Part shown: one piece after another, positions 27,819 to 53,095 of the stretch | How the letters are laid out: every line of letters begins with the position of its first letter | Numbering within the stretch: the stretch's first letter is position 1 | Assembly: GCA_041660785.1 (NCBI GenBank) | Contig: JBAZVQ010000001.1 | Span: 689,538-753,537 of the forward strand | Source of the DNA: Patescibacteria group bacterium | Lineage (GTDB): Bacteria > Patescibacteriota > Microgenomatia > UBA1406 > GWC2-37-13 | Direction of reading: 5' to 3' | Length of the DNA: 64,000 bases | The notes under the pieces: model-generated | The model's input: only the letters and a program-made list of their open reading frames with translations | Databases searched by the model: none | What the model was told of the DNA's origin: nothing | Position numbers and translations under genes: made by a program

Positions 27819-28585
27819 ATTATTTAGTGAAAAAACTGATCTTAATTAAATTAGGTGGGTCGTTGATCACCGATAAAACAAAGATCAACGTAGCAAGACA
27901 TGAAGTCATAGAAAACCTGGTAAAACAGGTAAAGGAAATTATTGAAAATAGTAAAGACCTGTCATTAATTATTGCCACAGGTGCAGGGGGATTCGGGCAT
28001 CCGGTGGCCAAAAAATACGAAAATAATTTGGAAGAGGGGTTACCTTTTATTAAAAAAGCCGTCAAGGAAATCAATCAGATCGTTGTTGATTCATTAAATA
28101 GCGAAGGGATAAAATCAGTGTCAATTGAACCATCAAAAATAGCCGAGTATGAAAATGGGAAGATTGTTTCATTGTTAGATTGTTCAATTGTTAAATTGTT
28201 GGAGAATAACATTGTTCCTGTATTTCATGCCGATTTGGTCAATGACAAAAAATTAGGAATTTCAATTTTATCGATGGATAGATTTATGGTTGATATGGCC
28301 ATTGATCTAAAAAATAGTGGTCATGCTGTTGAAAAAGTTATTTTTTGTGGAACGACCGATGGCGTCCTTGATAATAATGGAAAAACTATCGATAAAATTA
28401 ATAGAGAAAACTATTTAAAGATAAAATCATACTTTTATGACAATAAAGAAGTCGATACTTCTGGAGGAATGAAGAGTAAGGTTGAAGAATGCCTCAAACT
28501 GATCGATGAAAAAATTCCTTGTGTGATTATAAACGGACAAAAAATAAACGAATTAACAGGAAGGACTCTTATTGTCCAAGAGTAG
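27815..28585 (+). CDS. Isopentenyl phosphate kinase (amino-acid-kinase fold)
   Basis: IKLGGSLITDK, GAGGFGHPVAKKY and DTSGGMKSKV match the archaeal IPK signature (LGGS..DK, GGG.FGHP.AKKY, D.TGGM). ATGA overlap with the upstream gene. Confidence 0.85.
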   Translation: MNYLVKKLILIKLGGSLITDKTKINVARHEVIENLVKQVKEIIENSKDLSLIIATGAGGFGHPVAKKYENNLEEGLPFIKKAVKEINQIVVDSLNSEGIKSVSIEPSKIAEYENGKIVSLLDCSIVKLLENNIVPVFHADLVNDKKLGISILSMDRFMVDMAIDLKNSGHAVEKVIFCGTTDGVLDNNGKTIDKINRENYLKIKSYFYDNKEVDTSGGMKSKVEECLKLIDEKIPCVIINGQKINELTGRTLIVQE

Positions 28586-28955
28586 GTAATTTGATTTCAA
28601 ATCCGTTTCCATCAGGATCAGGGCGAATTATTTTCAAAACATCTCCAGCTAAAACATTGAATATAGTCAAAACGATAAAAACCAAAAGTATTCCAATTAA
28701 TGCATTGGTAATTTTAGCCTGAGCTTTAGTTAGTCTTTCTTTATCTCCATTAGAAACAATCCAATCAAATGCTCCCCAGAGGAGATAAAGGATCAAAAAC
28801 ATCCCGGCGACGAGGATGAACATTTGGATCCCAAAACCGATAAAGTTTCCCAATCCCTGAGCGGGATCATTACCACCAAGATTCATGGCGGCTGGTGGAG
28901 AGATACCGCCAAACAAGGCGTCAATTGCAGGGTCATTTTGTGTTAGTAATTTCAT
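28569..28955 (-). CDS. TrbC/VirB2-like (T4SS-type) pilin paralog P1
   Basis: Two-TM hairpin with the shared motif WGAFDWIVSNGDKERLTKAQAKITNALIGILL. Confidence 0.65.
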   Translation of the reverse strand: MKLLTQNDPAIDALFGGISPPAAMNLGGNDPAQGLGNFIGFGIQMFILVAGMFLILYLLWGAFDWIVSNGDKERLTKAQAKITNALIGILLVFIVLTIFNVLAGDVLKIIRPDPDGNGFEIKLPTLGQ

Positions 28956-29248
28956 TTCGGTAAAATATTAGTTTTTAGGACAACTCCTAATAATTGGACG
29001 GCTAAAAAACTGGCTACAACAATGATCAGGCCTAGGACAGCATTTGTAATTGCGGCATAGGCTTTTTTTAAGGCATCAGGATTATCTCCATTCGTCAAGA
29101 TATCAAAAGCAGCCTTAAGGGTGATTACTAAAAAAATCAACCCGGCACCAGTCAATGCCAAAGGCAAAGCAAGATTTAAAAGTTGACCAACATTCGCCAC
29201 TTTAGCAGCCGGAAAACTGGTGGAATTAATGGTAAAAGCGTAGACCAT
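28952..29248 (-). CDS. TrbC/VirB2-like pilin paralog P2
   Basis: KAAFDILTNGDNPDALKKAYAAITNAVLGLII. ATG 29248 preferred over TTG 29254. 4-nt overlap with P1. Confidence 0.65.
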   Translation of the reverse strand: MVYAFTINSTSFPAAKVANVGQLLNLALPLALTGAGLIFLVITLKAAFDILTNGDNPDALKKAYAAITNAVLGLIIVVASFLAVQLLGVVLKTNILPK

Positions 29249-29275
29249 GATCAAATTATAAGCTATAATTATTCT

Positions 29276-30319
29276 ATGTTCAATCCTACTTTTGTCATTA
29301 CCAATAAAATATTAATCAACATTTCCAAAATCGAAGCAGCAGAAGAAGTGATCAAGCATTCTCCTCTTTTACCGCTCTGGGAAAAACAGTTTAAAGAAGA
29401 AGCTCTTATTAGATCGGCTTATCACGGGACACATATTGAAGGTAATAATCTTCACAAAGATGATGCTAAGGATATTCTTATGGGAAAAGACGTTATCGGT
29501 CGACCACGTGACATTCAAGAAATTATCAACTATCGAAAAGTAATCGAGTTTATCGATGACGAGGCCAACAAAAAAATTGATAAAATTTCCGAGCAAATAA
29601 TCAAGAAACTTCATCGGATCTTGACCGATAAAATTTTACCGCCGGATGGACTGGGAGAATATAGAACTAAACAAGTAATTATCAGGAATTCAGCCAATGG
29701 CGAAGTGACCTTTCGACCCCCGCCACCGATTGAAGTACCATTTTTGATGAGGGAATTTATCTATTGGTTGAACCGTGATGACAAAGATAAATTACATCCG
29801 GTTTTGAAAGCGGGGATCGCCCATCATGAACTGGTTCGTATTCATCCATTTTTAGATGGTAATGGTCGAGCTTCTCGAGTTTTGGCCACTTTAATTTTAT
29901 TTTTGGGGGGCTATGATATTAGACGATTTTTTTCTCTTGAAGAATATTATGATAAAGATGCGATCACCTATTATCAAAACTTACAAAAGGCTTCGGCGGG
30001 GGATCTGACCAGTTGGCTAGAATATTTTACGTCTGGTGCAGGGATAGAATTTGAAAAAGTAAAAGAAAAGATCTTAAAATTATCTAAAGACGTTAAATTA
30101 AAGGAAAAATTTGGTGGTCAACAGATATTTTTAACGGAAAGACAGATGAAGATGATCGAATATATTCAGGAAATAGGTTATATACAAAATCAGACTTTTG
30201 GTGATGTTTTTCCTGATGTTTCTGAAGATACAGTTTTGCGGGATCTTCAGGATTTGATAAAAAAGGGTTTACTTAAAAAAATCGGCAGCACTAAATCGGC
30301 TCGTTATGTTATGGTTTAA
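29276..30319 (+). CDS. Fic-domain protein (AMPylase family) with C-terminal winged-helix
   Basis: Canonical Fic motif HPFLDGNGRASR. Start moved to ATG 29276 (MFNPTFVITNK), which has a TATAAT 6 nt upstream. The longer ORF from 29183 overlaps P2. Confidence 0.88.
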   Translation: MFNPTFVITNKILINISKIEAAEEVIKHSPLLPLWEKQFKEEALIRSAYHGTHIEGNNLHKDDAKDILMGKDVIGRPRDIQEIINYRKVIEFIDDEANKKIDKISEQIIKKLHRILTDKILPPDGLGEYRTKQVIIRNSANGEVTFRPPPPIEVPFLMREFIYWLNRDDKDKLHPVLKAGIAHHELVRIHPFLDGNGRASRVLATLILFLGGYDIRRFFSLEEYYDKDAITYYQNLQKASAGDLTSWLEYFTSGAGIEFEKVKEKILKLSKDVKLKEKFGGQQIFLTERQMKMIEYIQEIGYIQNQTFGDVFPDVSEDTVLRDLQDLIKKGLLKKIGSTKSARYVMV

Positions 30320-39173: not shown

Positions 39174-39308
39174 ATGAAAAGAACATGGCAGCCGAAAAAG
39201 GCAAAAAGAAATAAAGTTCATGGATTTTTGAAAAGAATGGCCTCAGCAAAGGGGAGATTGGTTTTAAAAAGAAGAAGAGGAAAAGGTAGAGCAAAATTAA
39301 CTGTGTAA
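39174..39308 (+). CDS. rpmH: Ribosomal protein L34
   Basis: Below the ORF-track length cutoff. [44 protein letters not shown]. Confidence 0.92.
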
Positions 39309-40742: not shown

Positions 40743-40798
40743 TACGAATACTGCGAATAAAGAAATGCGAATATAGCAAATTATGCTCATATTTGGTT

Positions 40799-41185
40799 AT
40801 GGGGAAAATCATATACCCAGAACTTTCGTATACTATTAATGGAATTTTGTTTAAAACGCATAATACGTTGGGAAAAAATTGTAGTGAAGGCCAATACTCA
40901 GATTTTGTTGAAAAACTTCTTAAAGAATCCAATGTAAAATATGAACGCGAAAAAATACTTCCGCCAATTTTTGATGGAGAAAAGTCAGGGAGAAATAAAG
41001 TCGACTTTTTAATCGATAATAAAATTATTTTAGAATTAAAATCAAAAAAAGTTATTTCGAAAGACGATTATTATCAGGTAAAAAGATATTTGACAACGTT
41101 AAGTAAAAAATTAGGAATAATAGTTAATTTTAGGTCTTCATATATCTATCCAAAAAGAATTTTAAATTCTTCAGCGAAAGAATAA
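40799..41185 (+). CDS. GxxExxY-family protein (PD-(D/E)XK nuclease fold)
   Basis: YPELSYTINGILFKTHNTLGKNCSEGQY ... VDFLIDNKIILELKS ... NF. ATG 40799 preferred over TTG 40793. Confidence 0.8.
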   Translation: MGKIIYPELSYTINGILFKTHNTLGKNCSEGQYSDFVEKLLKESNVKYEREKILPPIFDGEKSGRNKVDFLIDNKIILELKSKKVISKDDYYQVKRYLTTLSKKLGIIVNFRSSYIYPKRILNSSAKE

Positions 41186-41278: not shown

Positions 41279-44200
41279 ATGGATGCCAGTAACTCGCCCG
41301 AACAACAAAATAATCAACAGCAAGCCAGAGAAGCAGCTAGTCGTATAGCCGCTGAAGTCAGGGATAGTAATAATGCACGATATGCTGCCGTCGATAAGAT
41401 TTCAAATGATGCGGAAAGACAAAGACAAAGAGATCTTTTGGACGCAGAGATATCAAATAGTATTAGAGCGAGAATGAGAGATCAAATTGCTCGTGATAAG
41501 GCAGACGTAGGTACGACTGACAGCCCGGAAAACATCAAAGCAAAAGCAGATGATGCAAAAAGATCGCTTCTTGAAATTAAAGATTTAAATGAAAAAAATA
41601 GGGTCAACGTGGTTGATAGAAGGTCCCAGTTTTTGTTAGATAAAATAGTTGAACAAATAAAAAATGGCGAAATCACCGATCAGGGTGTCCTAGACGTTGA
41701 ACGAATACTTGGTAAACATCTGATTGACGGAATAGTGTTTTCACAGCCAGGTGAACAAATGAGTGATTTCGAAAAAGACCTAAAAACCTATTATGAAATA
41801 AACCCGATCGCAGCAACTCCTCTCGTGAGAAATTTATTACAAAATCCTGAGACTTATGGTTATGGGGACCCTAAAAGTTTATCTGATAAAATTAGTCCTT
41901 CAAAACAGGAAGAAACTCCAACTGAACAGGAAGATGATCAAAAAAATAAACCGCAAAAAGAAATGACTGAAGCGGACATGGATATGCAGCGCTTTCAAGC
42001 TGATTATCAATACTATCAAAACCGCTTTACAAACGAACAGTTGAAATTAATATCAGCTTTTTATTCGCCTGAAGCGATTGTCAACTATATGGAAAAGTTG
42101 AGTATCGGTGACGATCAAGATAAAAGTTTTCTAACAACACAACAAGTCAAGGAGAGAAAAGAGCAATTAAAAAAAGATATTGAAGAATATTATCAGAAAA
42201 ATAACAAAACATTTGAGCCAGGGAATAGTTTGGAAGATCAGGTTGAAAAACATTGGGGAGAAGAAGTATCAGAAATGATGAACTGGAGAATGTCAGATAT
42301 TGTCAATCAACTATTTTTGGAACTACAACAGAAGTCGCCGCATAAATTTTATGAGCAGATCATGCAAGAAGATATTTTTACAGGACCTTCCATGATCCAA
42401 AAAAAAATCCAGACGGCTATTAACGCGTTGATGACAAGGGTCGATCAGCTTGAAGGAAAAGACGCAAATAGTACCGAATTGACTCAAAGGATGGCAAAAC
42501 TTCAGTTATATAGATATGCGACCAAAGGGCATGAAATCGAGGAAAGAAGCGATGATCCAAATGACAAAAACAAAAAGATATATCCAAGAATTAAACCAAT
42601 TCCTTATGGTGAAAAAATCAATTTAGGCGTATTTATTGAATATGTAAACATGACAATTGATCAGACCATCCACAAAACCGAATATTTTCACAACGCTCGC
42701 GCAATATATAAACATCCCCCCGGTGAAAAAGGATTTTATCAAAAACTGGGAGATTTTGCTGAACAGCTTCAGGGAACCGATATCGAAGAAATTTTGATGT
42801 TACCGGATGGTCAATATGTATTGGAAGCATATCAACTTTACGAAAAAATGCTCCAGGAAGATTTTGCTCAGATGGATCATCGTCACCGGCCGGATCAATT
42901 GACCAATAAATTGGAACGGGTTAACAGTGAAATTGAAGAAGAGGTGATTGCACAGTTAATAAAATTTTATCCCGATCTGTCAAGACAAAGAGTAAAAAAT
43001 ATTGTCAATAACGCAGTCGGAGTTAGTCGTGGAATGTTTTTGACCGAAGCAGAACAGTCAGCGTATGCCGATCCAGTTGATTCGGAAGGAAAAGGAATGG
43101 TCGCTTCTTACTCGACCAACGATGCCGGATCCTTAAATGCTTTCAATCCGATGCACACGATCATGAGATGGCAGGGAGAACATAATTTTAATGCAATGTA
43201 TTTTATGCCAGTTAAGGGAGAATCAGGACCATGGGATCACCGTAAAGCCTGGAAAAATATGCAAAAATATATGGACTCATTTTATGTTGGTAAAGGTCGA
43301 GGAGTGGGCAAAAATGGTCTTCCGGAAGAAGTATTTGCAGATTCGATGATGAATATAGGAAAGATCGGTGGACCGGGGATAAGAAAAGGCTGGAGGATGA
43401 AACAAGCGCTTGAAGGTCATTTTGTTTATGATGACGATGGTACTATTGACGCTCCTAATACTTTTCAGGCAATGGAGGCGATCGGTTATGAGGCGCTCTA
43501 TAATTTTGTGAATTTGAAACAGGCAGGACCAGGTCTAATGAAAGCAACGGAAAAAATCAACCCAAAAGAGTTAAAGGAAAGAAAAAAGCTTTTTACATAT
43601 ATTTATAAAAAATATTTTTATACTGGTGACTCTCAAGATTTTCAGGAATCGGAATTTGACAATTATATGACGGAATTACAAAAAAAAGGAGAAGAAAAAG
43701 CCTTAAAAGCAATGAAAGGTGAGGTTAGGGGAAGGGAGAATGAAAAGGGTTCCCTGTCAGCCGGTAGTTGGGAAGAACAGGTAGCCTACGAAACTTCCCA
43801 AATGTTTTTGGAAAATATGTTGGCTCATTATACTGCTGCCAGGATGCCGACTAAATTTTTAAGAATTGATAAAAATAGACTACATAAAGATGGTATTGGC
43901 AATTGGGAGCGAGTCTGGAGAGAGTTTAGAGATAGAAAAGACAATCCATGGCAACGTAAGGATTTCGATCATGTTATGAAAGATTTGGGAACCGCCGAAA
44001 TGCTTTTACGACGGCAGATAGGAAAAATAATTAGAGATCAAATAAAATTTGATAAAGATTGGACCTTGGATAAGATAGATGAGATCAGAGATCTCCCGCA
44101 TAGGTTAACCTCCAACAAAATCAGGGAGCTACTTTCTGAGAATTCATCGGAGAACCCAAATAGAGAAAATAAAACTTTTAAAAATAAAGATGAAATTGAT

Positions 44201-45034
44201 AGAGTGGTTGAGCTTTATGAGCATATCATGAAAGACTTTGAAAATAACGAATATTTGGATAATAAAGGATATAAAGAAATAAGTGATTTCAAATTTACGT
44301 TTGGTCTGGAAGATACCGATCTTTCTTTAATGGCATTCCGAGGGACTGGTCCAAGAATGGCGGCGCGGGCGATCAAAGATACTGCGACGATAGAAACCGT
44401 AATAGTCCCTTGGATTATCAATATGCCATTGGTTTTAAATGAGATCGCCATCAGTGGGAAAAACGATTTTACTCCAATTATAAAATATATGAGAGAAGCA
44501 CAAAAGGCTATTACCGATGTCAATGGAGTCGAGGACACTTATGAATTTATGTATAAATTGGCTGGGACTGCCATTAATTACTTTAAAAAAGACGCAATGG
44601 CGAAGCCTTTATTTGGACTTTTTAGACTTGGAAAAATAAATTCAATAGCTGGTCAATATGCCGGCCGATCTAGTGCCGTCGTCGAATGGGATTCAAGAGA
44701 TATCGATCGGTTTATTATAACTATGGAGTCATATGGTTTATTAAAAAATAGCCCTTATAATCTCCAGGCAAAAGGAAATAATGATGAATTCTCAGGTGGT
44801 CTATGGGAAGATAGATGGGTGATCAATCCCTTAACCAAAAAACCAATGAAATGGGGGAAAAAAAGGCACGTTGATTATAAATATAACTCTTTGAGGCTCA
44901 GGAAAGAGCATGGGGCCGATGGGAAAGCAATCATGTGGGATTACGTAAATCAATTCTTGCCGCTAGCTGTAATACTTTTGTTATGGAAATATATCAAGGA
45001 TGCACTTGACGAAACAGAGGGGAAGAAAAAATAA
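41279..45034 (+). CDS. Giant orphan protein (1251 aa), C-terminal tail anchor
   Basis: Uninterrupted ORF. Gln/Arg/Asp-rich N-terminus, no signal peptide, single C-terminal TM (FLPLAVILLLWKYI). TGaTATATT box 6 nt upstream of the ATG. No catalytic motif recognised. Confidence 0.75.
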   Translation: MDASNSPEQQNNQQQAREAASRIAAEVRDSNNARYAAVDKISNDAERQRQRDLLDAEISNSIRARMRDQIARDKADVGTTDSPENIKAKADDAKRSLLEIKDLNEKNRVNVVDRRSQFLLDKIVEQIKNGEITDQGVLDVERILGKHLIDGIVFSQPGEQMSDFEKDLKTYYEINPIAATPLVRNLLQNPETYGYGDPKSLSDKISPSKQEETPTEQEDDQKNKPQKEMTEADMDMQRFQADYQYYQNRFTNEQLKLISAFYSPEAIVNYMEKLSIGDDQDKSFLTTQQVKERKEQLKKDIEEYYQKNNKTFEPGNSLEDQVEKHWGEEVSEMMNWRMSDIVNQLFLELQQKSPHKFYEQIMQEDIFTGPSMIQKKIQTAINALMTRVDQLEGKDANSTELTQRMAKLQLYRYATKGHEIEERSDDPNDKNKKIYPRIKPIPYGEKINLGVFIEYVNMTIDQTIHKTEYFHNARAIYKHPPGEKGFYQKLGDFAEQLQGTDIEEILMLPDGQYVLEAYQLYEKMLQEDFAQMDHRHRPDQLTNKLERVNSEIEEEVIAQLIKFYPDLSRQRVKNIVNNAVGVSRGMFLTEAEQSAYADPVDSEGKGMVASYSTNDAGSLNAFNPMHTIMRWQGEHNFNAMYFMPVKGESGPWDHRKAWKNMQKYMDSFYVGKGRGVGKNGLPEEVFADSMMNIGKIGGPGIRKGWRMKQALEGHFVYDDDGTIDAPNTFQAMEAIGYEALYNFVNLKQAGPGLMKATEKINPKELKERKKLFTYIYKKYFYTGDSQDFQESEFDNYMTELQKKGEEKALKAMKGEVRGRENEKGSLSAGSWEEQVAYETSQMFLENMLAHYTAARMPTKFLRIDKNRLHKDGIGNWERVWREFRDRKDNPWQRKDFDHVMKDLGTAEMLLRRQIGKIIRDQIKFDKDWTLDKIDEIRDLPHRLTSNKIRELLSENSSENPNRENKTFKNKDEIDRVVELYEHIMKDFENNEYLDNKGYKEISDFKFTFGLEDTDLSLMAFRGTGPRMAARAIKDTATIETVIVPWIINMPLVLNEIAISGKNDFTPIIKYMREAQKAITDVNGVEDTYEFMYKLAGTAINYFKKDAMAKPLFGLFRLGKINSIAGQYAGRSSAVVEWDSRDIDRFIITMESYGLLKNSPYNLQAKGNNDEFSGGLWEDRWVINPLTKKPMKWGKKRHVDYKYNSLRLRKEHGADGKAIMWDYVNQFLPLAVILLLWKYIKDALDETEGKKK

Positions 45035-45052
45035 ATTTGGTATCATGAAACT

Positions 45053-45841
45053 ATGAAGAAAATATTTTTGGTTTTATTTATTTTAGTAAGTTCGTTTTTA
45101 TTCTTTTCTTTAATTAAAGTTGAGGCTCAAATAACACCAACACCAATACAACAGTCTTTTCAGATGCCGGGAGTGACCTGTGGTGACGCCGAGTCAAAAG
45201 ATCCAAATATTCAAAAATGTTGTTTATCAGGCAACTTATCATTGAAAGATAAAATAGTAGTCCCGGAAGTTTTTTGCGTTAGTGATTTATTGGGTAGTCC
45301 AGTGAAGGCTGGTTGCCCAGGCAATGTAATAAATGGAATAGTCGGCTATTTTTTTTCAGCTTGGCCAATAAAAAATATTGAGGAATATTATACCGGTATA
45401 GCTCAAAAAGTAAATCCGTGTGTTACTGGAAATCCTTCCACTTTGGATTATTCTAACCCAAGTTGTGTCTGTAAAGTAGCTCTGGCTACGACAAAAGTTT
45501 TATGTGATAAATATTTAGCTAATAGTAGAGATTATGGAAGTTGTGTAACTTGTGCGGATAAAGGAGTCTGGACAAGTATCGGTTGCGTAAAAAATGATCT
45601 GAATAGCTTTATTGGAGAGACGGTATTTGGGACAGGGATAGGTTTGGCTGGTGGGCTTTCGTTGCTTTGTATAATCTATGCGGCCTTTATGATGCAGTCA
45701 TCGGAAGGTAATCCGGAAAAACTGAAGAAAGCTCAAGAGATGATTACGAGCTGTATAATGGGATTAATGTTGATAATATTTTCAGTCTTTATATTAAGAT
45801 TAATCGGAGTGAATATATTGAAGATTCCTGGTTTTGGATAA
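45053..45841 (+). CDS. Secreted Cys-rich protein fused to a C-terminal TrbC/VirB2-like pilin module (P4)
   Basis: Signal peptide and a domain rich in cysteines, then IIYAAFMMQSSEGNPEKLKKAQEMITSCIMGLMLII, matching the pilin paralog motif. Confidence 0.65.
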   Translation: MKKIFLVLFILVSSFLFFSLIKVEAQITPTPIQQSFQMPGVTCGDAESKDPNIQKCCLSGNLSLKDKIVVPEVFCVSDLLGSPVKAGCPGNVINGIVGYFFSAWPIKNIEEYYTGIAQKVNPCVTGNPSTLDYSNPSCVCKVALATTKVLCDKYLANSRDYGSCVTCADKGVWTSIGCVKNDLNSFIGETVFGTGIGLAGGLSLLCIIYAAFMMQSSEGNPEKLKKAQEMITSCIMGLMLIIFSVFILRLIGVNILKIPGFG

Positions 45842-45854
45842 CAAACGATTTTTA

Positions 45855-47495
45855 TTATTTATCATATTGACTAGTACTGGCCTGGGCGTTAGGTGTTGAT
45901 CTTCTTAGTTTAGATACGCCTTCCTTAAATAATTTACCGATACCTTGATCACCAGAAAGTGCCGATAAACCAAGACTGATACTTCCAACCTGTCCAAGTA
46001 ACCCTAGCCCACCGCCAACGGCCGCACTGGTCCCGCCAAAATATGTCCCAAGACCGACTTGGATAGGTAACGGTTTTAATCCAATCGCCTCTTTTATTAA
46101 CTTAATAAAATCAGGGATGAGAAACATTATCCCGATCCCGATCAGTGTCCCGAAATATGCCGAGCCCATCTGAGGTAAAAGCGGAGGACTCCAAATATTA
46201 GCTCCACTATTGGACGATTCGATCAAAATAGTGGCAATAAGCATAAAGCAGATGACTAAAGGAAATGAGATTAGATCACCGAGCAAATTTTTAAGCCACC
46301 AACCGAAAACATTTTTACCCGGAATTGCTTCAAATAAAAGTAATATTGGCGAAAATATTATAAGGAGAATAATTTCAATATAAGATTTGAATAAAAGAAA
46401 AGTAATCCTAAAAAATAGAAATATCACTGTAAACCAGACAAAAAGAGAAATTACGGCGGGCAATAATATAAATGTGGAAAGAAAAAGAATAATAACCCAG
46501 ATTGGAAATTTAAAAATTGCTTCCACAGCATTTTTTGTCCAATTACCTAGAGCTGAAAATTTACCGATGTCACCAGTAAAAAAATCACCAAGAACAGGAA
46601 TTCCTTGTACTAAGAAACTGGTAATAAAAGCAACAATAACAGTAAAAATAATTCTCGCTATAGTAGGTAAAAAACTTAATAAAGCTTCGCCGATCCCCCA
46701 AATATTACCCAACTTACTGAAAATAAACCAACTATTTCCTCCTAAAAAAGCATTTTGATATGTTTGAACATCGATATGGACATCGGGATTTTTACTGAGA
46801 ATGGAAATAATTAAGACAATTAGTACATACATTAAGTCGATCATAAATCCGGCTATAGCAAAAGAAAAAGTAATTAATATTAAAGAAATAACTATTTTAG
46901 GAAGCGCATTTTCAACGGAGATGACGGTTTGAGGATTGATCTTAGTTCGAAACATTACCATAAATCCTATCGCGATCAAAATGACTACAAGAAGCATATA
47001 AGAAAGGTCCCGGAAGATCTTCCAAAGATTGGAAAACGGCTTGATCGCAGCAAAACCAATACCCTCGGCAGCCATAGTCTTTGGTATAAAACCGGCCTGT
47101 TGAAGGCTATCGGAAACCCATGCTATACCTGAAGCAGGTGGATTTGAATAGGGCATAGCTATCAAATTACCCACAAAACCAAAAAAACTTTTACCATAAT
47201 TTTTATCAGCGTCAGCAGGGTTTTTAGTACAGGCTTCACCAAGCATAATGCACATTGATGTTTTGTAAACTGCAATAGTTAGTTTTCCTTGCTGAGTCTT
47301 ATTAAGCTCTTTGTCGTTAATAACCTTGTAAATTTCTATACGGTTTTGTTTGATCGGGTCTGATTTAGTGGAGGATAAGGCGATTTTATCTTTACCAATA
47401 AAATTGGAAAATAGAGTAATGACGATAAAGAAAACAGCTACGACGAGAAAAGCCTTTTTTAGAAAACTAAATGCAGGATTCAAAAATAAGAACAT
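45855..47495 (-). CDS. Polytopic membrane protein (about 10 or more TM), VirB6/TrbL-like by architecture only
   Basis: Signal anchor, about 130-aa ectodomain, then a dense TM bundle and a Gly-rich tail. Functional call rests on context with the pilin genes. Confidence 0.5.
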   Translation of the reverse strand: MFLFLNPAFSFLKKAFLVVAVFFIVITLFSNFIGKDKIALSSTKSDPIKQNRIEIYKVINDKELNKTQQGKLTIAVYKTSMCIMLGEACTKNPADADKNYGKSFFGFVGNLIAMPYSNPPASGIAWVSDSLQQAGFIPKTMAAEGIGFAAIKPFSNLWKIFRDLSYMLLVVILIAIGFMVMFRTKINPQTVISVENALPKIVISLILITFSFAIAGFMIDLMYVLIVLIISILSKNPDVHIDVQTYQNAFLGGNSWFIFSKLGNIWGIGEALLSFLPTIARIIFTVIVAFITSFLVQGIPVLGDFFTGDIGKFSALGNWTKNAVEAIFKFPIWVIILFLSTFILLPAVISLFVWFTVIFLFFRITFLLFKSYIEIILLIIFSPILLLFEAIPGKNVFGWWLKNLLGDLISFPLVICFMLIATILIESSNSGANIWSPPLLPQMGSAYFGTLIGIGIMFLIPDFIKLIKEAIGLKPLPIQVGLGTYFGGTSAAVGGGLGLLGQVGSISLGLSALSGDQGIGKLFKEGVSKLRRSTPNAQASTSQYDK

Positions 47496-47530
47496 AATTT
47501 GATTATAGCAAGAATTTAGAATAGAAAATT

Positions 47531-47974
47531 TTATTTTAATAAGAACTGTTCTGCACCTAATCCCGGGTAGTTTGCCGTTCTCCAGCTCTCAAATTCTTTC
47601 TGGGCCTGATCTTTTGGGTCGTGCAGCGTGACTACGAATTTATCGGTGCCGTAGTCAAAATCGATCGTAAAGGTAGAAAGGTTGAGCGGAGTTTTTAGAC
47701 GGAGATCTTTTTTTTGGATGGAAGTATTAAGGACTTGGGCGGGTAACTGCTCCTCGGCAACTCCGGTAAAGTCGGAGGCCGGAACAGTCGCTTGTTGATT
47801 ATTTGTTATTGACTGTTGACTTGTGTCGATCGAAGTAGGTGTAGGAAGAGAACCAGTTGAAGGACTTTGTGGATTGGTGGTTTTTTTAGAAAAAGGAATA
47901 ATGAGAATAAGTATAAATAATACTATTAACGCGAAGGAAATTCCGAGATAAACTTTAATGTTCGAATTGTCCAT
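47531..47974 (-). CDS. Membrane-anchored protein with Pro/Ser/Thr/Gln linker and small C-terminal domain
   Basis: C-terminal FTIDFDYGTDKFVVTLHDPKDQAQKEFESWRTANYPGL resembles FKLQYSSRLQKIVVEKKTPQAETEFVNWANQNSFPQL in the next gene. Confidence 0.6.
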   Translation of the reverse strand: MDNSNIKVYLGISFALIVLFILILIIPFSKKTTNPQSPSTGSLPTPTSIDTSQQSITNNQQATVPASDFTGVAEEQLPAQVLNTSIQKKDLRLKTPLNLSTFTIDFDYGTDKFVVTLHDPKDQAQKEFESWRTANYPGLGAEQFLLK

Positions 47975-47979
47975 AATTA

Positions 47980-49068
47980 TTACTTTTTAACTCCAAATGC
48001 TAATCGGTACAACGGGTATGGGTAACGAGTATTTTCATTATAGGGGATTTCATAACGGCCGTAGGCAGGATCATAGGCATATATGTTCCCTTTAGCATCT
48101 ATATCGGTGATCCAAAAATAGTGACCGCAACCTCCATCACAAAAACTGGCCAAAGTAAAGAAAGTCCAGCCCGCCGCTAAATATTTCTTCAGGTCAGGAA
48201 CAACCGTATCGGACCTTTCGGCATTAAAGACAAGATAATCGGTAGTTTTTAAACCTAAATCTTGCAGGATCTGTTTGGCATCGGAGTAACGTGAACCATC
48301 ACAACCGAGCAAATATCCTTTAGATTGGTACATATTAACAATAGTTTTTGGTGTGTAGCTGTTTCCTAAATAACTGGCAGCGATCATAGAGACGGTTGTT
48401 GGTCCACAACCAGCCTGACACAAGTTACAACCATCGGGAAGAGGGAGGTCGCCCTGATCTCCACATTGAGGATAGTAGGTGAAAGAGGGGCTAGGGGCTA
48501 GACTGTTAGGGGCTAGGGAGGAAGGGCTGGGAGATTGGAGGGTAGAAGATGGGTTAGCTTGATTATTATTTGAGGAAGGATTGCCCTGCCCCATGTTCAT
48601 AAAGATGTTCAGGAAATCAATGACGGGATTAAAATCGTCAGGATTTTTTCCCTGATCAACGATCAAGGTCAAATTCTGATTACCGATGAGTTGGGGAAAA
48701 CTATTTTGATTGGCCCAGTTAACAAATTCAGTTTCAGCCTGAGGTGTTTTTTTTTCAACGACAATTTTTTGAAGTCTGGAAGAGTATTGAAGTTTAAAAT
48801 CAGCGGTTTCGACCGGTGTGATAGCTGAAAGTTTAGCTAAAACGTCTGGAGAAACGTCTAGAGAATTGACGATGGTAGTTGGGATCGGAAGTTGGTTAGG
48901 GGATTGTGAAGGTAGCGATTGTAGCGATTGATCGGTAGGAATACTGGTTGGAAAAGGGGTATTTTTTTGAGTTGTCGTCGTTGATTTTTTCCCAAGAGAA
49001 AGGATTATAGAAATTATTACCAAAAGGATTAGGAAAGCTCCTGCAAGAACAATATATATTTTTTTCAT
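47980..49068 (-). CDS. Membrane-anchored protein with C-terminal peptidase-C39-like (papain-fold) domain
   Basis: QAGCGPTTVSMIA (catalytic Cys context) and GGCGHYFWITDID (His context). Linker rich in P/S/Q/N. Confidence 0.6.
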   Translation of the reverse strand: MKKIYIVLAGAFLILLVIISIILSLGKKSTTTTQKNTPFPTSIPTDQSLQSLPSQSPNQLPIPTTIVNSLDVSPDVLAKLSAITPVETADFKLQYSSRLQKIVVEKKTPQAETEFVNWANQNSFPQLIGNQNLTLIVDQGKNPDDFNPVIDFLNIFMNMGQGNPSSNNNQANPSSTLQSPSPSSLAPNSLAPSPSFTYYPQCGDQGDLPLPDGCNLCQAGCGPTTVSMIAASYLGNSYTPKTIVNMYQSKGYLLGCDGSRYSDAKQILQDLGLKTTDYLVFNAERSDTVVPDLKKYLAAGWTFFTLASFCDGGCGHYFWITDIDAKGNIYAYDPAYGRYEIPYNENTRYPYPLYRLAFGVKK

Positions 49069-49147: not shown

Positions 49148-52069
49148 ATGGCCGACTATTTTGATTTTATTAAAAAACCACAGAACAATGCAACAGGTAA
49201 TTCGAATGTGAGCCCAGTTGGACAAGATCAAAAATCAAATATCAAAGATCAAAACGACAAATCAAACATTCCTTCTCCCGCTCCCACTATTCAAAATCCC
49301 ACAAAACCCGAAGTTAAAGTTCCCAACCAAGTAACCAAACAACCAACTAACCAAGCTACTAACAATTTAGATTTGATGACTCACTTGACTCAACGATCCA
49401 ATCGGGTCATGATGGCCGCACAAACAAAAGCAAAAGAATTAAAATCAGAGCTAGTCGATAGTGAGCATCTTTTATACGCTTTGACAACCGATAGTGAAAT
49501 ATACAACTTATTGGTTGAAATGAAGATCCAACCACAGTTAATTACCGATGAATTAACAAAAATTTATAAACGCGGAACAGTCGATCGAGTAGTCCAATTT
49601 TCTCCGAGAATAAAAAAGATTCTCAATGACGCTTTGGTAATAGCCAGAAAATTAGGATTTGAATTTATTGCTCCGGAACATTTATTACTATCGATATTTG
49701 AAGAAGGTGAAGGAGTAGGAGCACGAGTTTTGGTTAAATTAGGTTTAAATAAAGAAGACCTAAATAAAAAAGTCGTCGGAAAAAAGGAAGGGTTAAACGA
49801 AGAGGAAAAGAAAGCTGAAAGTAAGAAAAAATCGTTAGAACAGTTTACGATCGATTTAACCGCCAAGGCTTCTCAAGGGTTACTTGATGCGGTAGTTGAA
49901 AGATCGGCCGTTATCGAACGAGTTATTCATATTTTATCCCGTCGAACCAAAAATAATCCGTCGTTGGTTGGTGAAGCTGGAGTAGGAAAAACTGCCATAG
50001 TTGAAGGTTTAGCTGAAAAGATTGTTGCCAAAGAAGTACCTGAACCATTATTAAATAAAAGAATCCTTCAATTGGATCTAATGAGTATGTTGGCCGGTGC
50101 TTCTCACCGTGGTGAGTTTGAAGAACGAATGAAGGATTTGATTGAAGAAGTAAAAGCCAGCCAAGGTCAGATTATTCTTTTTATTGATGAAATCCACAAT
50201 ATAGTTGGGGCAGGTGCGTCAGGCGAAGGATCTCTTGATGCATCTAACTTTTTAAAACCGGCGCTTGCTCGCGGAGAAATTCAAATTGTTGGAGCAACAA
50301 CCTTAACTGAATATAGAAAATATATTGAAAAAGATCCGGCGCTTGAAAGACGATTTCAACCTGTTTTGGTCCCAGAACCGACAGTAGAGCAGGGAATAAA
50401 AATGCTTAAAGCCATAAAAGATAAATATGAAGCTTTTCATCGAGTTAAGATCCCGGATGATGCGATTGAGGCAGCTGTCATTTTATCGAAGCGTTATGTG
50501 GGTGACCGGTTTTTGCCAGATAAAGCCGTTGATCTTATTGATGAGGGCGCGTCAGCAGTTCGACTGCCTTTAATTTCACTGCCCGAAGAGATAAAATCTT
50601 TAGAAACAAGAATTGCTCAACTCAATCAAGAGCTAAAAGAATCGGAAAAGAAAACCGATAAAGTTAAGTCGAGAATATTGCGATCAAAAATAGATGAAAT
50701 CAACTCCGGTTTAAAGGAGAAAAAAGAAGAGTTTAGTCTTAAAAAAAGTCAGTCAACCGGGGTTGTAACAGTCGATATTATTAAGGACATTATTGCCCGT
50801 TGGACGGGAATACCTGTTGCAAAAATTTCGTCTACTGAAACAGAAAAGTTAGCTCATTTGGAAGATATTATTCACAAAAGGTTAATCGATCAGGAAGGTG
50901 CGGTAGCTTCTGTCTCCCAAGCGGTTCGCCGTGGTAGGGCGGGGTTAAAATCGGCAGTCCGACCAATCGGGAGCTTTATTTTTCTTGGTCCAACTGGAGT
51001 AGGAAAAACTGAGCTCGCCAAAGCGCTCGCCGACATTTTGTTTGGAAGTGAAGATTTGATGATTAGATTTGATATGACCGAGTACATGGAGAAACATGAA
51101 GTAGCCAAATTACTTGGTGCTCCTCCAGGTTATGTTGGTTATGAAGAAGGTGGAAAACTGACAGAACAGGTAAGACGAAAACCCTACAGTGTTGTTCTTT
51201 TTGATGAAGTTGAAAAAGCTCATCCGGATATTTTTAATATTCTTCTCCAGATCTTGGATGACGGAAGGTTGACTGATAATAAAGGTCGTACAATTTCTTT
51301 TAAAAATACTGTTGTGATTTGTACATCAAATTTAGGAACAAAATTGATTCAGGATGAAATGTTAAAAGATCAAATCAAAAATCAAAAATCAAAAATCAAA
51401 ACGACAAATCAAAAATCAAAAATTGAAGACGAAAATGACAAAAATAAATTCAAGATTGTAAAAGAAAAAGTCATGGTGGAGTTGACCAAGTTTTTTAAAC
51501 CGGAGTTGATCAACCGTTTTGATGAGGTGATTGTTTTTGAGCCACTAAGGTTTCAAGATATGGTCGAAATAGTCAAATTGCAGATGAAGGGGATAATTAA
51601 ATTAATTGAGGAACAAGATATGGGATTTGCCTATACAGACGAAGTGATTCAAGAAGTTGTCAAGACAGGTTTTGATCCATTATATGGAGCTCGACCTTTA
51701 AGACGGGCAATTCAAAAATTAATTGAAAATCCGATTTCCAATTTAATTATTGAAGGCAAAGTCAAACCAGGGGATTTAATTAGAGCCAGAGTAGATAAAG
51801 ATGAATTAATCTTTGAAATAGAAAAAACTGTTTATCTACCAAAAAATGTTAAAAATTATCATTGCCAGGCCTGTGGATGGGATTTTGAAAATGAATTAGT
51901 TATTAATTCAACAATTATTTGTCCAAAATGTTTAAAACACGGTGAAAAAATTTTAATAGTGGAAAAACCAAAATTACAAGATTTAAAAGTACCCGAACCC
52001 AGTGTCAAAGAAGTTGGTAAAACCACCGATTTAAAACCTCAGGAGAATGTTGACAAAAAAGTTGTATGA
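49148..52069 (+). CDS. ClpC-like class-I AAA+ unfoldase with low-complexity N-terminal extension and C-terminal zinc ribbon
   Basis: Two Clp_N repeats, NBD1 [12 protein letters not shown]2 GPTGVGKTE, short M-domain. C-terminal CQACG...CPKC. An alternative start is ATG 49376. Confidence 0.88.
49226..49267. repeat. ATCAAAA-type heptamer repeat, copy in the Clp N-terminal extension
   Basis: GATCAAA AATCAAA TATCAAA GATCAAA ACGACAA ATCAAAC encodes [14 protein letters not shown]. Confidence 0.8.
51368..51448. repeat. ATCAAAA-type heptamer repeat, copy inside Clp NBD2
   Basis: GATCAA (ATCAAAA)x4 CGACAAA TCAAAAA TCAAAAA TTGAAGA... encodes [26 protein letters not shown]. Confidence 0.8.
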
Positions 52070-52383
52070 AAAATTTACTCGCCCAATCACTTAACTTAGG
52101 TGCGCAAACGATTAATGGCCCTCTTGATTCCAGTGTCGACTCACTAGGTGCGATAATTACAAAAGCCCTAAATTTTATCATGCCAATGGCAGGAATCATC
52201 CTTTTATTTGTTTTAATTTCCGGAGGTTACGACTACATGATGTCTCAGGGAAATGCCGATAAAATAAAAGCCGGTCAGGCAAAAATTACATCCGGTATAG
52301 TTGGCTTTATTCTTTTAATTATTTCCTTTCTTATCACGAGATTAATTGCTGCTATCTTTGGTCTTGGTGGCGGAATCTTTTAG
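52066..52383 (+). CDS. TrbC/VirB2-like pilin paralog P3
   Basis: SGGYDYMMSQGNADKIKAGQAKITSGIVGFILL. ATGA overlap with the Clp gene stop. Confidence 0.65.
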   Translation: MKNLLAQSLNLGAQTINGPLDSSVDSLGAIITKALNFIMPMAGIILLFVLISGGYDYMMSQGNADKIKAGQAKITSGIVGFILLIISFLITRLIAAIFGLGGGIF

Positions 52384-52399
52384 GGTATAATATATTCAT

Positions 52400-53095
52400 A
52401 TGCAAGAATCTCCGATTGTCATTTCCGTTGGTGGTAGTTTAATAGTTCCCAACGGTGGTATAAATACCGACTTTTTAATTAAACTAAATCAATTAATCAG
52501 AGAAGAAGTTGCAAATGGAAAAAGGTTTATGCTGATTGCTGGAGGTGGAAAGTTAGCGCGACGATATCAGGAAGCAGGGTCAGCGGTCATTGGAAAGTTA
52601 ACCAAGGAAGATCTTGATTGGTTGGGTATTCATTCAACCCATCTTAATGGTCAGTTACTTAGAACAATATTTCAAGATATCTCAAATCCCCGTGTCATGC
52701 AACACTATGATCGAAAACTAGAAAATTGGACAGAGCCGGTCGCAATCGGTGCTGGCTGGATGCCGGGTTGTTCAACCGATTATGATGCAGTAATTTTGGC
52801 CCGTGATCATAAGGCAAAAATAATAATTAATATGTCAAATATAGATTATGTTTTTGACAAGGACCCCGGTAAATTTTCTGATGCTAAACCTTTAAAAAAT
52901 ATCACCTGGAAAGAAATGGAGGAATTGGTTGGAGACAAATGGTTGCCTGGCCACAACTCACCATTTGATCCCATTGCAACAAAACTTGCTAAAAGTTTAA
53001 ACCTAACGGTTGCGATAGCTAATGGAAACGACATGGAAAATATAAAAAAAATTATTAATAATGAATCTTTCAAAGGAACCGTCATAAGCCCATGA
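52400..53095 (+). CDS. pyrH: UMP kinase, archaeal type
   Basis: VISVGGSLIVP, AGGGKLARRY, GCSTDYDA and a C-terminal GT.I.P ending parallel archaeal PyrH. TATAAT box 8 nt upstream of the ATG. Confidence 0.85.
   Translation: MQESPIVISVGGSLIVPNGGINTDFLIKLNQLIREEVANGKRFMLIAGGGKLARRYQEAGSAVIGKLTKEDLDWLGIHSTHLNGQLLRTIFQDISNPRVMQHYDRKLENWTEPVAIGAGWMPGCSTDYDAVILARDHKAKIIINMSNIDYVFDKDPGKFSDAKPLKNITWKEMEELVGDKWLPGHNSPFDPIATKLAKSLNLTVAIANGNDMENIKKIINNESFKGTVISP

Follow-up and report, generated by a model that had tools for sequence, protein, structure and literature searches.

Layout of the cluster

Patescibacteria account for a large part of bacterial diversity, and they live in attachment to other cells. 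In the only member amenable to genetics, the type IV secretion system and its array of pilins are essential. Here, we describe a cluster of five genes from a member of this group (assembly GCA_041660785.1, contig JBAZVQ010000001.1), which is part of a stretch of 64,000 nucleotides that was analysed as a whole and that we call the window. The open reading frame (ORF) calls delimit, on the forward strand, the genes for a giant protein of 1251 amino acids (41279-45034) and for a pilin fusion of 262 amino acids, PILFUS (45053-45841), and, on the reverse strand, those for a polytopic membrane protein of 546 amino acids, MEM546 (45855-47495), for a protein of 147 amino acids, P147 (47531-47974), and for an anchored C39-like cysteine peptidase of 362 amino acids, the C39 protein (47980-49068). 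An initial annotation of this DNA had suggested that the five consecutive genes code for components of an apparatus that spans the envelope or forms a filament. Their coordinates were confirmed exactly, and the genes turned out to form two convergent units rather than a single co-directional string: the giant gene is followed by PILFUS on one strand, and on the other the C39 gene precedes P147 and MEM546. The stop codons at the convergent ends, those of PILFUS and MEM546, are separated by 13 bp. On the reverse strand, the gaps measure 5 bp between the C39 and P147 genes and 36 bp between P147 and MEM546. As only 18 bp lie between the giant gene and PILFUS on the same strand, these two genes are probably co-transcribed. 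A scan for promoters and terminators gave no more sites than shuffled sequence. The composition of the cluster is unremarkable, with a GC content of 0.36-0.39 as compared to 0.29-0.41 in the rest of the window.

The closest relatives of all five proteins are encoded by metagenome-assembled Candidatus Roizmanbacteria/Microgenomates, i. e. members of the Patescibacteria or candidate phyla radiation (CPR), and identical proteins in the database bear the locus tags WC744_03890 and WC744_03900. For the comparison of gene order, 85 related loci were gathered and one more was added later; their ORFs were annotated by BLAST and with family hidden Markov models (HMMs). Some of these loci are overlapping retrievals of one contig.

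A VirB2-like pilin with a cysteine-rich head

PILFUS consists of three parts, all encoded on the forward strand: an N-terminal hydrophobic signal of the Sec type (residues 1-25, 45053-45127), a cysteine-rich ectodomain of about 160 residues (residues ~26-185, 45128-45607), and a two-helix hairpin that is VirB2-like by its homology to pilins (residues ~186-262, 45608-45838). The hairpin contains two hydrophobic segments (residues 190-216 and 227-261) with a lysine-rich loop between them. PILFUS has 14 cysteines, and about 12 of them are conserved at a level of at least 90% in 78 relatives. The description of PILFUS as a secreted, cysteine-rich protein that ends in a TrbC/VirB2-like hairpin is supported. 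The hairpin is best recognised by comparison with a small pilin from the same window, PIL105: residues 198-251 of PILFUS are 41% identical to this protein over 54 residues (E 1e-9), and the HMMs of the two families match each other in every relative, with values of about 1e-8 to 1e-16. Searches with curated profiles were less conclusive. PILFUS reaches 18.2 bits (E 0.0027) with the T4SS_pilin family PF18895 and stays under the gathering cutoff of 26.6, so that the assignment as a pilin stands on the hairpin homology and not on the direct Pfam match. The match to NCBIfam NF045849, the "pilin-like conjugal transfer protein" of mycoplasma integrative and conjugative elements (ICEs), has an E value of 4e-5. 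In hhalign, the PILFUS profile was negative against 34 proteins of the type IV secretion systems (T4SSs) of pCF10, R388 and Tn916.

The presence of a signal peptide, the conserved cysteines and the lysine-rich loop between the helices suggest that the N-terminus of PILFUS faces outwards and that the loop is inside, and this topology would suit a VirB2-type pilin. In any filament, the cysteine-rich head would therefore be expected on the outer face. To our knowledge, a folded, disulfide-rich head has not been described for any pilin of the VirB2 type. If PILFUS is indeed part of a filament, such a head-bearing pilin would offer a way to present adhesins without VirB5.

In addition to PILFUS, the window contains three pilin genes that the initial annotation had missed. 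PIL105 is a stand-alone VirB2-like pilin of 105 amino acids (52066-52383, forward strand) that passes the PF18895 cutoff of 26.6 with 27.4 bits and matches NF045849 with an E value of 2.7e-8. Its start overlaps the stop codon of the preceding clpB gene by 4 bp, and the clpB-PIL105 neighbourhood is kept in relatives. The other two are VirB2-like pilins encoded in tandem on the reverse strand, one of 128 amino acids (28569-28955; PF18895, 28.4 bits) and one of 100 amino acids with a TTG start (28952-29254); they match the PIL105 family HMM with E values of 2e-15 and 1.2e-14.

Some further features of the pilin loci are worth reporting. The tandem pilin genes overlap each other by 4 bp and adjoin an amino-acid-kinase gene (27815-28585, forward strand), and PIL105 is likewise followed by a gene for an amino-acid kinase (52400-53095). 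An ORF of 574 amino acids (26094-27818, forward strand) lies directly upstream of the kinase gene and the tandem pilin genes; it has one internal hydrophobic segment, matches no Pfam or PHROG family, and may encode another uncharacterised envelope component. A Fic ORF with a TTG start (29183-30319, forward strand) overlaps the second tandem pilin gene, so that the true Fic start is probably located further downstream. In 25 of the related loci, clpB and the PIL105 gene are separated by a gene whose product is a polytopic membrane protein with a length of about 220 amino acids (e. g. L028:4585-5247 and L036:3490-4182, both on the reverse strand). This protein carries an HExxH motif within a transmembrane helix and is thus a putative intramembrane metalloprotease that could be a pilin-processing enzyme; a tblastn search did not find it in the window.

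MEM546 as a candidate VirB6-type protein

The polytopic MEM546 has about 8-10 transmembrane helices and an N-terminal helical ectodomain of about 100 residues with two conserved cysteines, Cys82 and Cys89. It belongs to a large family: 3,647 representatives of clusters at 50% identity were retrieved at E<=1e-3. The initial annotation had credited it with about 10 or more transmembrane helices and with a VirB6/TrbL-like architecture. The polytopic nature is evident; the relation to VirB6 and TrbL is weakly supported, and direct profile scans with the window protein were negative.

Several weak lines of evidence point to VirB6. First, TrbL is the commonest Pfam family among 85 diverse MEM546 relatives (29-42% identical), yet it is found in only two of them; the best E value is 1.1e-4, and about 0.01 matches would be expected by chance at this level over 85 proteins. 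The recurring NCBIfam matches of these relatives include the mycoplasma ICE families Mbov_0396 and MMCAP2_0566 (about 1e-3, 2 of 85 relatives). Second, the AlphaFold2 model of MEM546, with a mean predicted local distance difference test score (pLDDT) of 77.7, was compared to the Protein Data Bank (PDB) with Foldseek, and ranks 1-3 and 7 of the non-significant result were taken by Legionella DotA and by TrwI/VirB6 chains of R388 (TrwI at ranks 2, 3 and 7, with E values of 0.9-2.2); the top scores correspond to E values of 0.5-2.2, a probability of up to 0.72 and a target-normalised template modelling (TM) score of 0.33-0.42. Third, hhalign was used to align the MEM546 profile with a VirB6 profile made from 11 sequences of conjugative plasmids. 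The alignment pairs the family-invariant Pro383…Trp400 of MEM546 with the invariant Pro181…Trp199 of VirB6, and its P value of 0.005 is the best of 10 cross-family pairs among five polytopic families, the runner-up having 0.056. The aligned segment of MEM546 covers residues 367-465 (46101-46397, reverse strand) and includes Gly393 as a further family-invariant residue. Finally, the position of the gene fits: MEM546, which has more than the five transmembrane helices expected at the least of a VirB6-type protein, is encoded beside a VirB2-like pilin gene in 77 of 82 loci, though never beside virB4.

Other results weigh against a VirB6 identity, and with it against the reading of the cluster that we propose below. 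The window copy of MEM546 has no Pfam or NCBIfam T4SS match, and TrbL (PF04610) is absent from its matches even at E 0.1-1. No PDB sequence was matched, including in a profile search, and Foldseek against the PDB gave nothing at E<=0.001. The hhalign result extends over 98 columns, but its probability is only 7%, and the VirB6 HMM built from the 11 sequences did not retrieve a single MEM546 relative in a sequence search. An apparent similarity of MEM546 relatives to PrgH and to Orf15 of Tn916 around an EAIP…WW motif, seen in single-sequence hhalign comparisons, was rejected since controls gave similar P values. A glycosyltransferase (GT-C) or flippase identity was likewise discarded: no such fold was among the Foldseek matches.

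On balance, we regard MEM546 as a candidate for a highly divergent VirB6-type protein; this assignment is weakly supported, and we would still sooner expect it to hold than to fail. It agrees with a published survey that calls VirB6 "scarce" in the large class Microgenomatia, "suggesting extreme sequence divergence" (PMC12102498). MEM546, whose family numbers more than 3,600 clusters, would be a concrete candidate for the VirB6 protein that this survey could hardly find in Microgenomatia.

The stalk of MPF_T systems, for which structures of the R388 components TrwL/TrwJ/TrwI (VirB2/VirB5/VirB6) are available (PDB 7O3V, 8RT9, 8RTD), provides a useful comparison. Common to both are a two-helix hairpin pilin and a polytopic protein, here one with a Pro…Trp core that aligns with VirB6 and for which VirB6 chains come near the top of the Foldseek ranking. 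The differences concern the size of the latter (546 amino acids with an extra N-terminal ectodomain, as compared to about 340 in TrwI), the structural and sequence scores of MEM546, which are individually non-significant, and the host, which is monoderm here and has no outer-membrane core complex. Moreover, the cluster encodes no VirB5 homologue, a component for which the cysteine-rich pilin head may substitute.

A conserved gene order and a fast-evolving giant

The order of the genes is nearly invariant in the related loci: a tRNA synthetase gene, rpmH, yidC and jag are followed by the giant gene and PILFUS, and these by the convergent MEM546. PILFUS is at most two ORFs away from the 3' end of MEM546 in 77 of 82 loci, and the giant gene is found beside PILFUS/MEM546 in 74 of 79; the genes are co-localised in relatives beyond chance. 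The arrangement is kept down to 29-40% identity of MEM546 and to 18% identity of the giant. The 5' side of MEM546 is variable. A protein with the N-terminal module of P147 is encoded there in 61 of 75 loci, a protein with a C39 catalytic domain in only 37 of 75, and in about half of the related loci the C39/P147 genes are swapped for others.

In the window, the upstream flank comprises genes for a DUF2298 membrane protein and a class I tRNA synthetase, which is the leucyl-tRNA synthetase (LeuRS), as well as rpmH (39174-39308), yidC, jag/khpB and a small PD-(D/E)XK gene; downstream of the cluster follow clpB, PIL105, the amino-acid-kinase gene and recF. The genes rpmH, yidC and jag form the usual flank of a bacterial replication origin.

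The giant protein was initially described as a tail-anchored orphan. The tail anchor was confirmed at the level of the family, and the protein is no orphan: the database search returned 53 homologues, all of the Roizmanbacteria type, and 72 proteins at the position of the giant in related loci form one BLAST-connected family. In all 69 full-length family members, the only hydrophobic segment is located right at the C-terminal end (median Kyte-Doolittle value KD19 1.70), and an N-terminal signal is lacking; these proteins contain almost no cysteine, and the anchor is followed by an acidic and basic tail of about 15 residues that usually ends with GKKK. In the window copy, which is mostly alpha-helical and has neither a cysteine nor a signal peptide, the anchor comprises residues ~1220-1240 (44936-44998, forward strand) with the core FLPLAVILLLW and a charged tail ending with GKKK. 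This anchor is under the KD threshold of 1.6, and it is clear at the family level. Since the only hydrophobic segment is C-terminal and an N-terminal signal is lacking throughout the family, we conclude that the bulk of the giant is cytoplasmic and that the protein is tail-anchored.

The giant family is, as judged from its sequences, lineage-restricted with about 70 members, and it is fast-evolving. When compared to the window copy, the giants show a median identity of 30.6% and a minimum of 18%, as against medians of 44.8% for MEM546 and 42.7% for PILFUS, and the giant family retains only five invariant or near-invariant residues. The protein has no match in Pfam, NCBIfam, PHROG or among PDB sequences, and a search of 29 divergent giants against Pfam gave no recurrent family. 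The structure prediction that had been suggested for the giant yielded an AlphaFold2 model (residues 52-1251; pLDDT 76, predicted TM score 0.71) that is almost wholly helical, with the anchor as one long helix. A fold match was not obtained: Foldseek against the PDB and BFVD returned only long-helical noise (TM about 0.08).

Among the closer relatives (45-70% identical, alignment A2), conservation is strictest at residues ~600-640 of the giant, in the stretch …ASYSTNDAGSLN…RWQGEH…, which is located in and next to a segment with an AlphaFold pLDDT below 50. Instead of belonging to a structural core, this stretch may form a loop with a function of its own or a site of interaction.

How far does the constant position of the giant gene tell us about its function? 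It is conceivable that only PILFUS and MEM546, with or without the peptidase, are of the T4SS type, and that the giant is an unrelated, lineage-specific bystander, or a tail-anchored protein inserted by YidC that has another role; a frozen yidC-jag neighbourhood would then have placed it there. This idea draws on the fact that the housekeeping flank is equally syntenic, on the much faster evolution of the giant as compared to its neighbours, and on its lack of similarity to any T4SS protein. Furthermore, the MEM546 family with its 3,647 clusters is far wider than that of the giant, for which the 53 matches come from Roizmanbacteria-type contigs only, so that MEM546 probably exists without the giant elsewhere. 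The smaller number of matches may, however, partly reflect the word-index search in combination with fast divergence. Against a bystander speak the 18-bp gap to PILFUS on the same strand and the persistence of the giant beside PILFUS in 74 of 79 loci, even at 18% identity. We consider a bystander role unlikely. As a conserved and yet fast-evolving protein, the giant is a well-defined target for structural and interaction work.

The anchored proteins P147 and C39

P147 (47531-47974, reverse strand) is composed of an N-terminal transmembrane anchor, a linker rich in proline, serine, threonine and glutamine, and a small extracytoplasmic domain of about 60 amino acids. The same arrangement of a transmembrane helix, a linker of this composition and a small domain is found in the N-terminal module of the C39 protein (residues 1 to ~140, 48649-49068, reverse strand). 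That the two anchored proteins share a small domain, as initially noticed, is supported by a BLASTP match between P147 and this module (E 0.005) and by the family HMMs, which match each other's members at 1e-8 to 1e-16: the HMM of the C39 family matches every P147 relative over the first ~110 positions, with values of 1e-5 to 1e-16. In related loci, the module also heads proteins with different tails. Two similarities to T4SS proteins were dismissed: a match of the C39 protein to DotF involves only the transmembrane and low-complexity linker region, and the hhalign match of P147 to the VirB8-like PrgL (P 0.003), which covers only 18 columns, is non-significant after 34 tests.

The C-terminal part of the C39 protein (residues ~196-362, 47983-48483, reverse strand) was correctly recognised as a papain-fold domain. 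It matches Peptidase_C39_2 (PF13529) over the full length of the model with 26.5 bits (cutoff 24, E 1e-5), and the catalytic residues Cys221 (in QAGCGPT), His316 (in GHYFWI) and Asp333 are conserved at a level of at least 90% in 38 relatives. No close solved structure was found for the domain. The domain faces outwards and shares its membership of the papain-like superfamily with the CHAP and NlpC hydrolases of monoderm T4SSs, and in Southlakia the peptidase and lysozyme genes beside virB4 are essential (PMC12102498). For these reasons, the most economical role of the C39 peptidase is to open the cell wall locally, and by analogy it would most likely be a functional counterpart of the VirB1/CHAP hydrolases. 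A function in pilin processing is speculation.

The combination of a C39-family peptidase, a secreted protein with 14 cysteines and an adjoining polytopic membrane protein might also bring to mind a system for the maturation and export of a bacteriocin-like or other cysteine-rich exoprotein, with the peptidase processing the precursor and the polytopic protein acting in export or immunity. We find this very improbable. On reading of the sequence, PILFUS starts with a common type of Sec signal and lacks a double-glycine leader, and it terminates in a conserved pilin hairpin. The match of the peptidase is to the C39_2 family and not to the transporter-linked C39 domain, and Pfam scans of the window revealed no ATP-binding cassette (ABC) ATPase. 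Moreover, PILFUS and MEM546 are constant, whereas a protein with the catalytic domain is encoded in only half of the loci (37 of 75, see above).

The VirB4 question and a proposed satellite pilus module

As stated in the initial annotation, this is not a canonical T4SS locus: neither VirB4 nor VirD4 is encoded within the 64-kb window, which was scanned with Pfam on every ORF of at least 545 amino acids and by phmmer with PrgJ, TrwK, PcfC and TrwB. The more general idea of a T4SS-related apparatus of the envelope or of a filament, to which the gene products would contribute, is supported by our work. Specifically, we propose that the cluster is a chromosomally fixed satellite module for the pilus or stalk of the patescibacterial T4SS, a monoderm and MPF_FATA-derived system, in the form that it takes in Roizmanbacteria, with VirB4 encoded elsewhere in the genome. 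We give this proposal a slightly better than even chance of being correct.

The published picture of T4SSs in Patescibacteria agrees with such a module. These bacteria have a monophyletic MPF_FATA-like VirB4 and VirB2-like pilins that were detected via PF18895; for Microgenomatia, abundant pilin arrays were described, as well as T4SS components that are dispersed and often not located near virB4 (PMC12102498). In Southlakia, the T4SS and a pilin array are essential (PMC10633639; PMC12857230). As VirB2-like pilins, dispersed components and a scarcity of VirB6 have thus already been described, the locus is less exotic than it was first scored. In the accessible part of Table S1 of the survey, 41 of 56 Roizmanbacteria assemblies are scored as having VirB4, among them every assembly that consists of a single contig and several that carry the cluster (PMC12102498).

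The T4SS of Southlakia epibionticum (SEML1_0006-0019) and the cluster have much in common: both belong to monoderm CPR hosts and lack a relaxase, both have several divergent VirB2-like pilins of PF18895 and a polytopic VirB6-type component (a candidate in our case), both include accessory enzymes of the peptidase or lysozyme type, and both are located in an origin-type neighbourhood, which is marked here by rpmH-yidC-jag (Quinonero-Coronel et al. 2025, PMC12102498; Wang et al. 2023, PMC10633639). The cluster differs by the absence of VirB4, VirB3 and TrsD within 10 kb, by the one pilin that carries an N-terminal cysteine-rich domain of about 160 residues, by a VirB6 candidate that escapes standard profiles, and by the tail-anchored protein of 1,251 amino acids, which has no known counterpart, in a conserved gene order.

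In the proposed module, MEM546 may serve as a VirB6-type platform on which the pilins assemble, and PILFUS might act as a minor or tip pilin or as an adhesin, in a role like that of VirB5. The bulk subunits would be provided by the plain pilins, i. e. PIL105 and the tandem pair at 28.6-29.3 kb. The C39 peptidase and P147 would be extracytoplasmic accessory proteins that are held by a common membrane-anchor module. The energy would be supplied by the ATPase VirB4 from a gene at another place in the genome, as the literature on sister genomes suggests. It is tempting to speculate that the giant serves the platform as a scaffold on its cytoplasmic side that is peculiar to this lineage; of all parts of the proposal this one is the weakest, suggested by the position of the gene, and our confidence in it is low.

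Several observations weigh against the proposal, in addition to the negative results for MEM546. None of the 85 related loci encodes VirB4, VirD4, VirB3 or VirB8 within 10 kb, and a physical linkage of the cluster to the ATPase is therefore absent. In the survey data that could be consulted, 15 of the 56 Roizmanbacteria assemblies are scored as VirB4-negative, among them two drafts that bear the cluster (PMC12102498). In hhalign, the giant is similar to none of the 34 T4SS proteins of pCF10, R388 and Tn916. Finally, the synteny of the housekeeping genes LeuRS-rpmH-yidC-jag in the flank is kept just as well as that of the cluster itself, so that conserved order supports a joint function without proving it.

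The same observations may be turned into a different explanation: giant, PILFUS and MEM546 might form an autonomous, T4SS-derived surface filament or attachment organelle that is specific to Roizmanbacteria and independent of VirB4, with the giant or the adjacent ClpB-type AAA+ protein replacing VirB4 in assembly. The lack of VirB4 and VirD4 within 10 kb in 85 of 85 loci would then be meaningful, as would the invariance of the triad among variable neighbours and the two cluster-bearing draft genomes that the consulted part of the survey scores as VirB4-negative (PMC12102498). Likewise, clpB is conserved beside the cluster, with its stop codon in a 4-bp overlap with the PIL105 start, and the giant, encoded upstream of the pilin gene, combines a large cytoplasmic mass with a membrane anchor. 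However, on reading of its sequence neither a P-loop nor another NTPase signature is seen in the giant, it is without a fold match, and its family keeps only five invariant or near-invariant residues. ClpB has canonical domains and may be a plain housekeeping disaggregase. Most Roizmanbacteria, including every sampled single-contig assembly, have VirB4, and the VirB4-negative genomes are drafts, according to the entries of Table S1 at our disposal (PMC12102498). An autonomous organelle is thus distinctly unlikely in our opinion. It seems to us quite improbable, too, that the giant, the cysteine-headed pilin and the VirB6-like platform constitute a self-contained and VirB4-independent filament or contact organelle that is unique to Roizmanbacteria. 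In this case, a T4SS pilus module would have become detached from its secretion ATPase, and the giant, with a novel fold, would be a new kind of cytoplasmic factor for assembly or anchoring; alternatively, it would be a substrate that evolves fast and is passed on to the host cell.

The Ced system for DNA import of crenarchaea resembles the cluster by description: it is derived from T4SSs, operates in a cell without an outer membrane, combines VirB2-like pilins (CedA1/A2) with a polytopic VirB6-like protein (CedA), and has been put to a non-classical use. Unlike the cluster, it includes a VirB4-like ATPase, CedB, in the same system.

Among mobile elements, the mycoplasma ICEs are closest. They belong to the MPF_FATA world, and a small pilin-like two-helix protein (NF045849, Mbov_0395/MMCAP2_0565) is apparently encoded beside a polytopic membrane protein (NF045889, Mbov_0396; NF045848, MMCAP2_0566), as judged by the numbers of the locus tags. 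Since the pilin-like family matches PILFUS and PIL105 and the membrane protein families match MEM546 relatives, this gene pair may recur in the cluster. None of these matches reaches its curated cutoff: the pilins have E values between 3e-8 and 4e-5, and two of the 85 MEM546 relatives give about 1e-3. The mycoplasma elements are mobile and carry VirB4/VirD4 as well as a DDE transposase, whereas the locus described here is fixed and has none of these. These weak matches, together with a small PD-(D/E)XK gene that shifts its place within the cluster among relatives, could be taken to indicate the remnant of an integrated conjugative element. We attach next to no credence to this: neither the insertion site nor the gene order changes among about 85 loci, which represent many species, the GC content is like that of the surroundings, and neither an integrase, a relaxase nor a coupling protein was found in scans of the window, and no coupling protein in the 85 loci.

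The Pam pili are surface filaments specific to CPR bacteria, and Pam homologues are also present in Microgenomatia (bioRxiv 10.64898/2026.03.03.709456). Pam pilins are Ig-like and rely on donor-strand exchange and chaperone-usher-like factors; none of these is present here, and the cluster was thus rejected as a Pam pilus system and is unrelated to it.

If it is indeed a satellite module, the cluster shows that the pilus part of a T4SS can be encoded apart from virB4. The pilus machinery of T4SSs is known from related bacteria; what makes the locus moderately interesting is the pilin with its head, the candidate for VirB6 and the giant protein.

Variation among related loci and neighbouring genes

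The small PD-(D/E)XK gene of the window, which belongs to the PDDEXK_3 family, is located between jag and the giant gene (40793-41185, forward strand). In several related loci, it sits between P147 and MEM546 instead, and in others a gene of the 23S_rRNA_IVP family fills the gap between jag and the giant gene; such arrangements are exemplified by the loci L012, L014, L018, L021 and L030 and by L002:9520-9888. The PDDEXK_3 and 23S_rRNA_IVP genes look like small mobile or selfish genes that move among the intergenic sites of the cluster.

The clpB gene downstream of the cluster (49148-52069, forward strand) encodes a long ClpB of 973 amino acids with the canonical ClpB domains and a weak match to a zinc ribbon at the C-terminus.

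Two observations concern the assemblies from which the related loci were taken. In three of them, two contigs each carry a MEM546-PILFUS pair (L019/L027, L047/L072 and L062/L065), which could reflect either genuine paralogues or bins with mixed strains. Moreover, many third-party (TPA) assemblies with a locus of the Roizmanbacteria type are titled "uncultured Gammaproteobacteria" or "Saccharibacteria" (among loci L006-L085), and these titles are evidently wrong labels.

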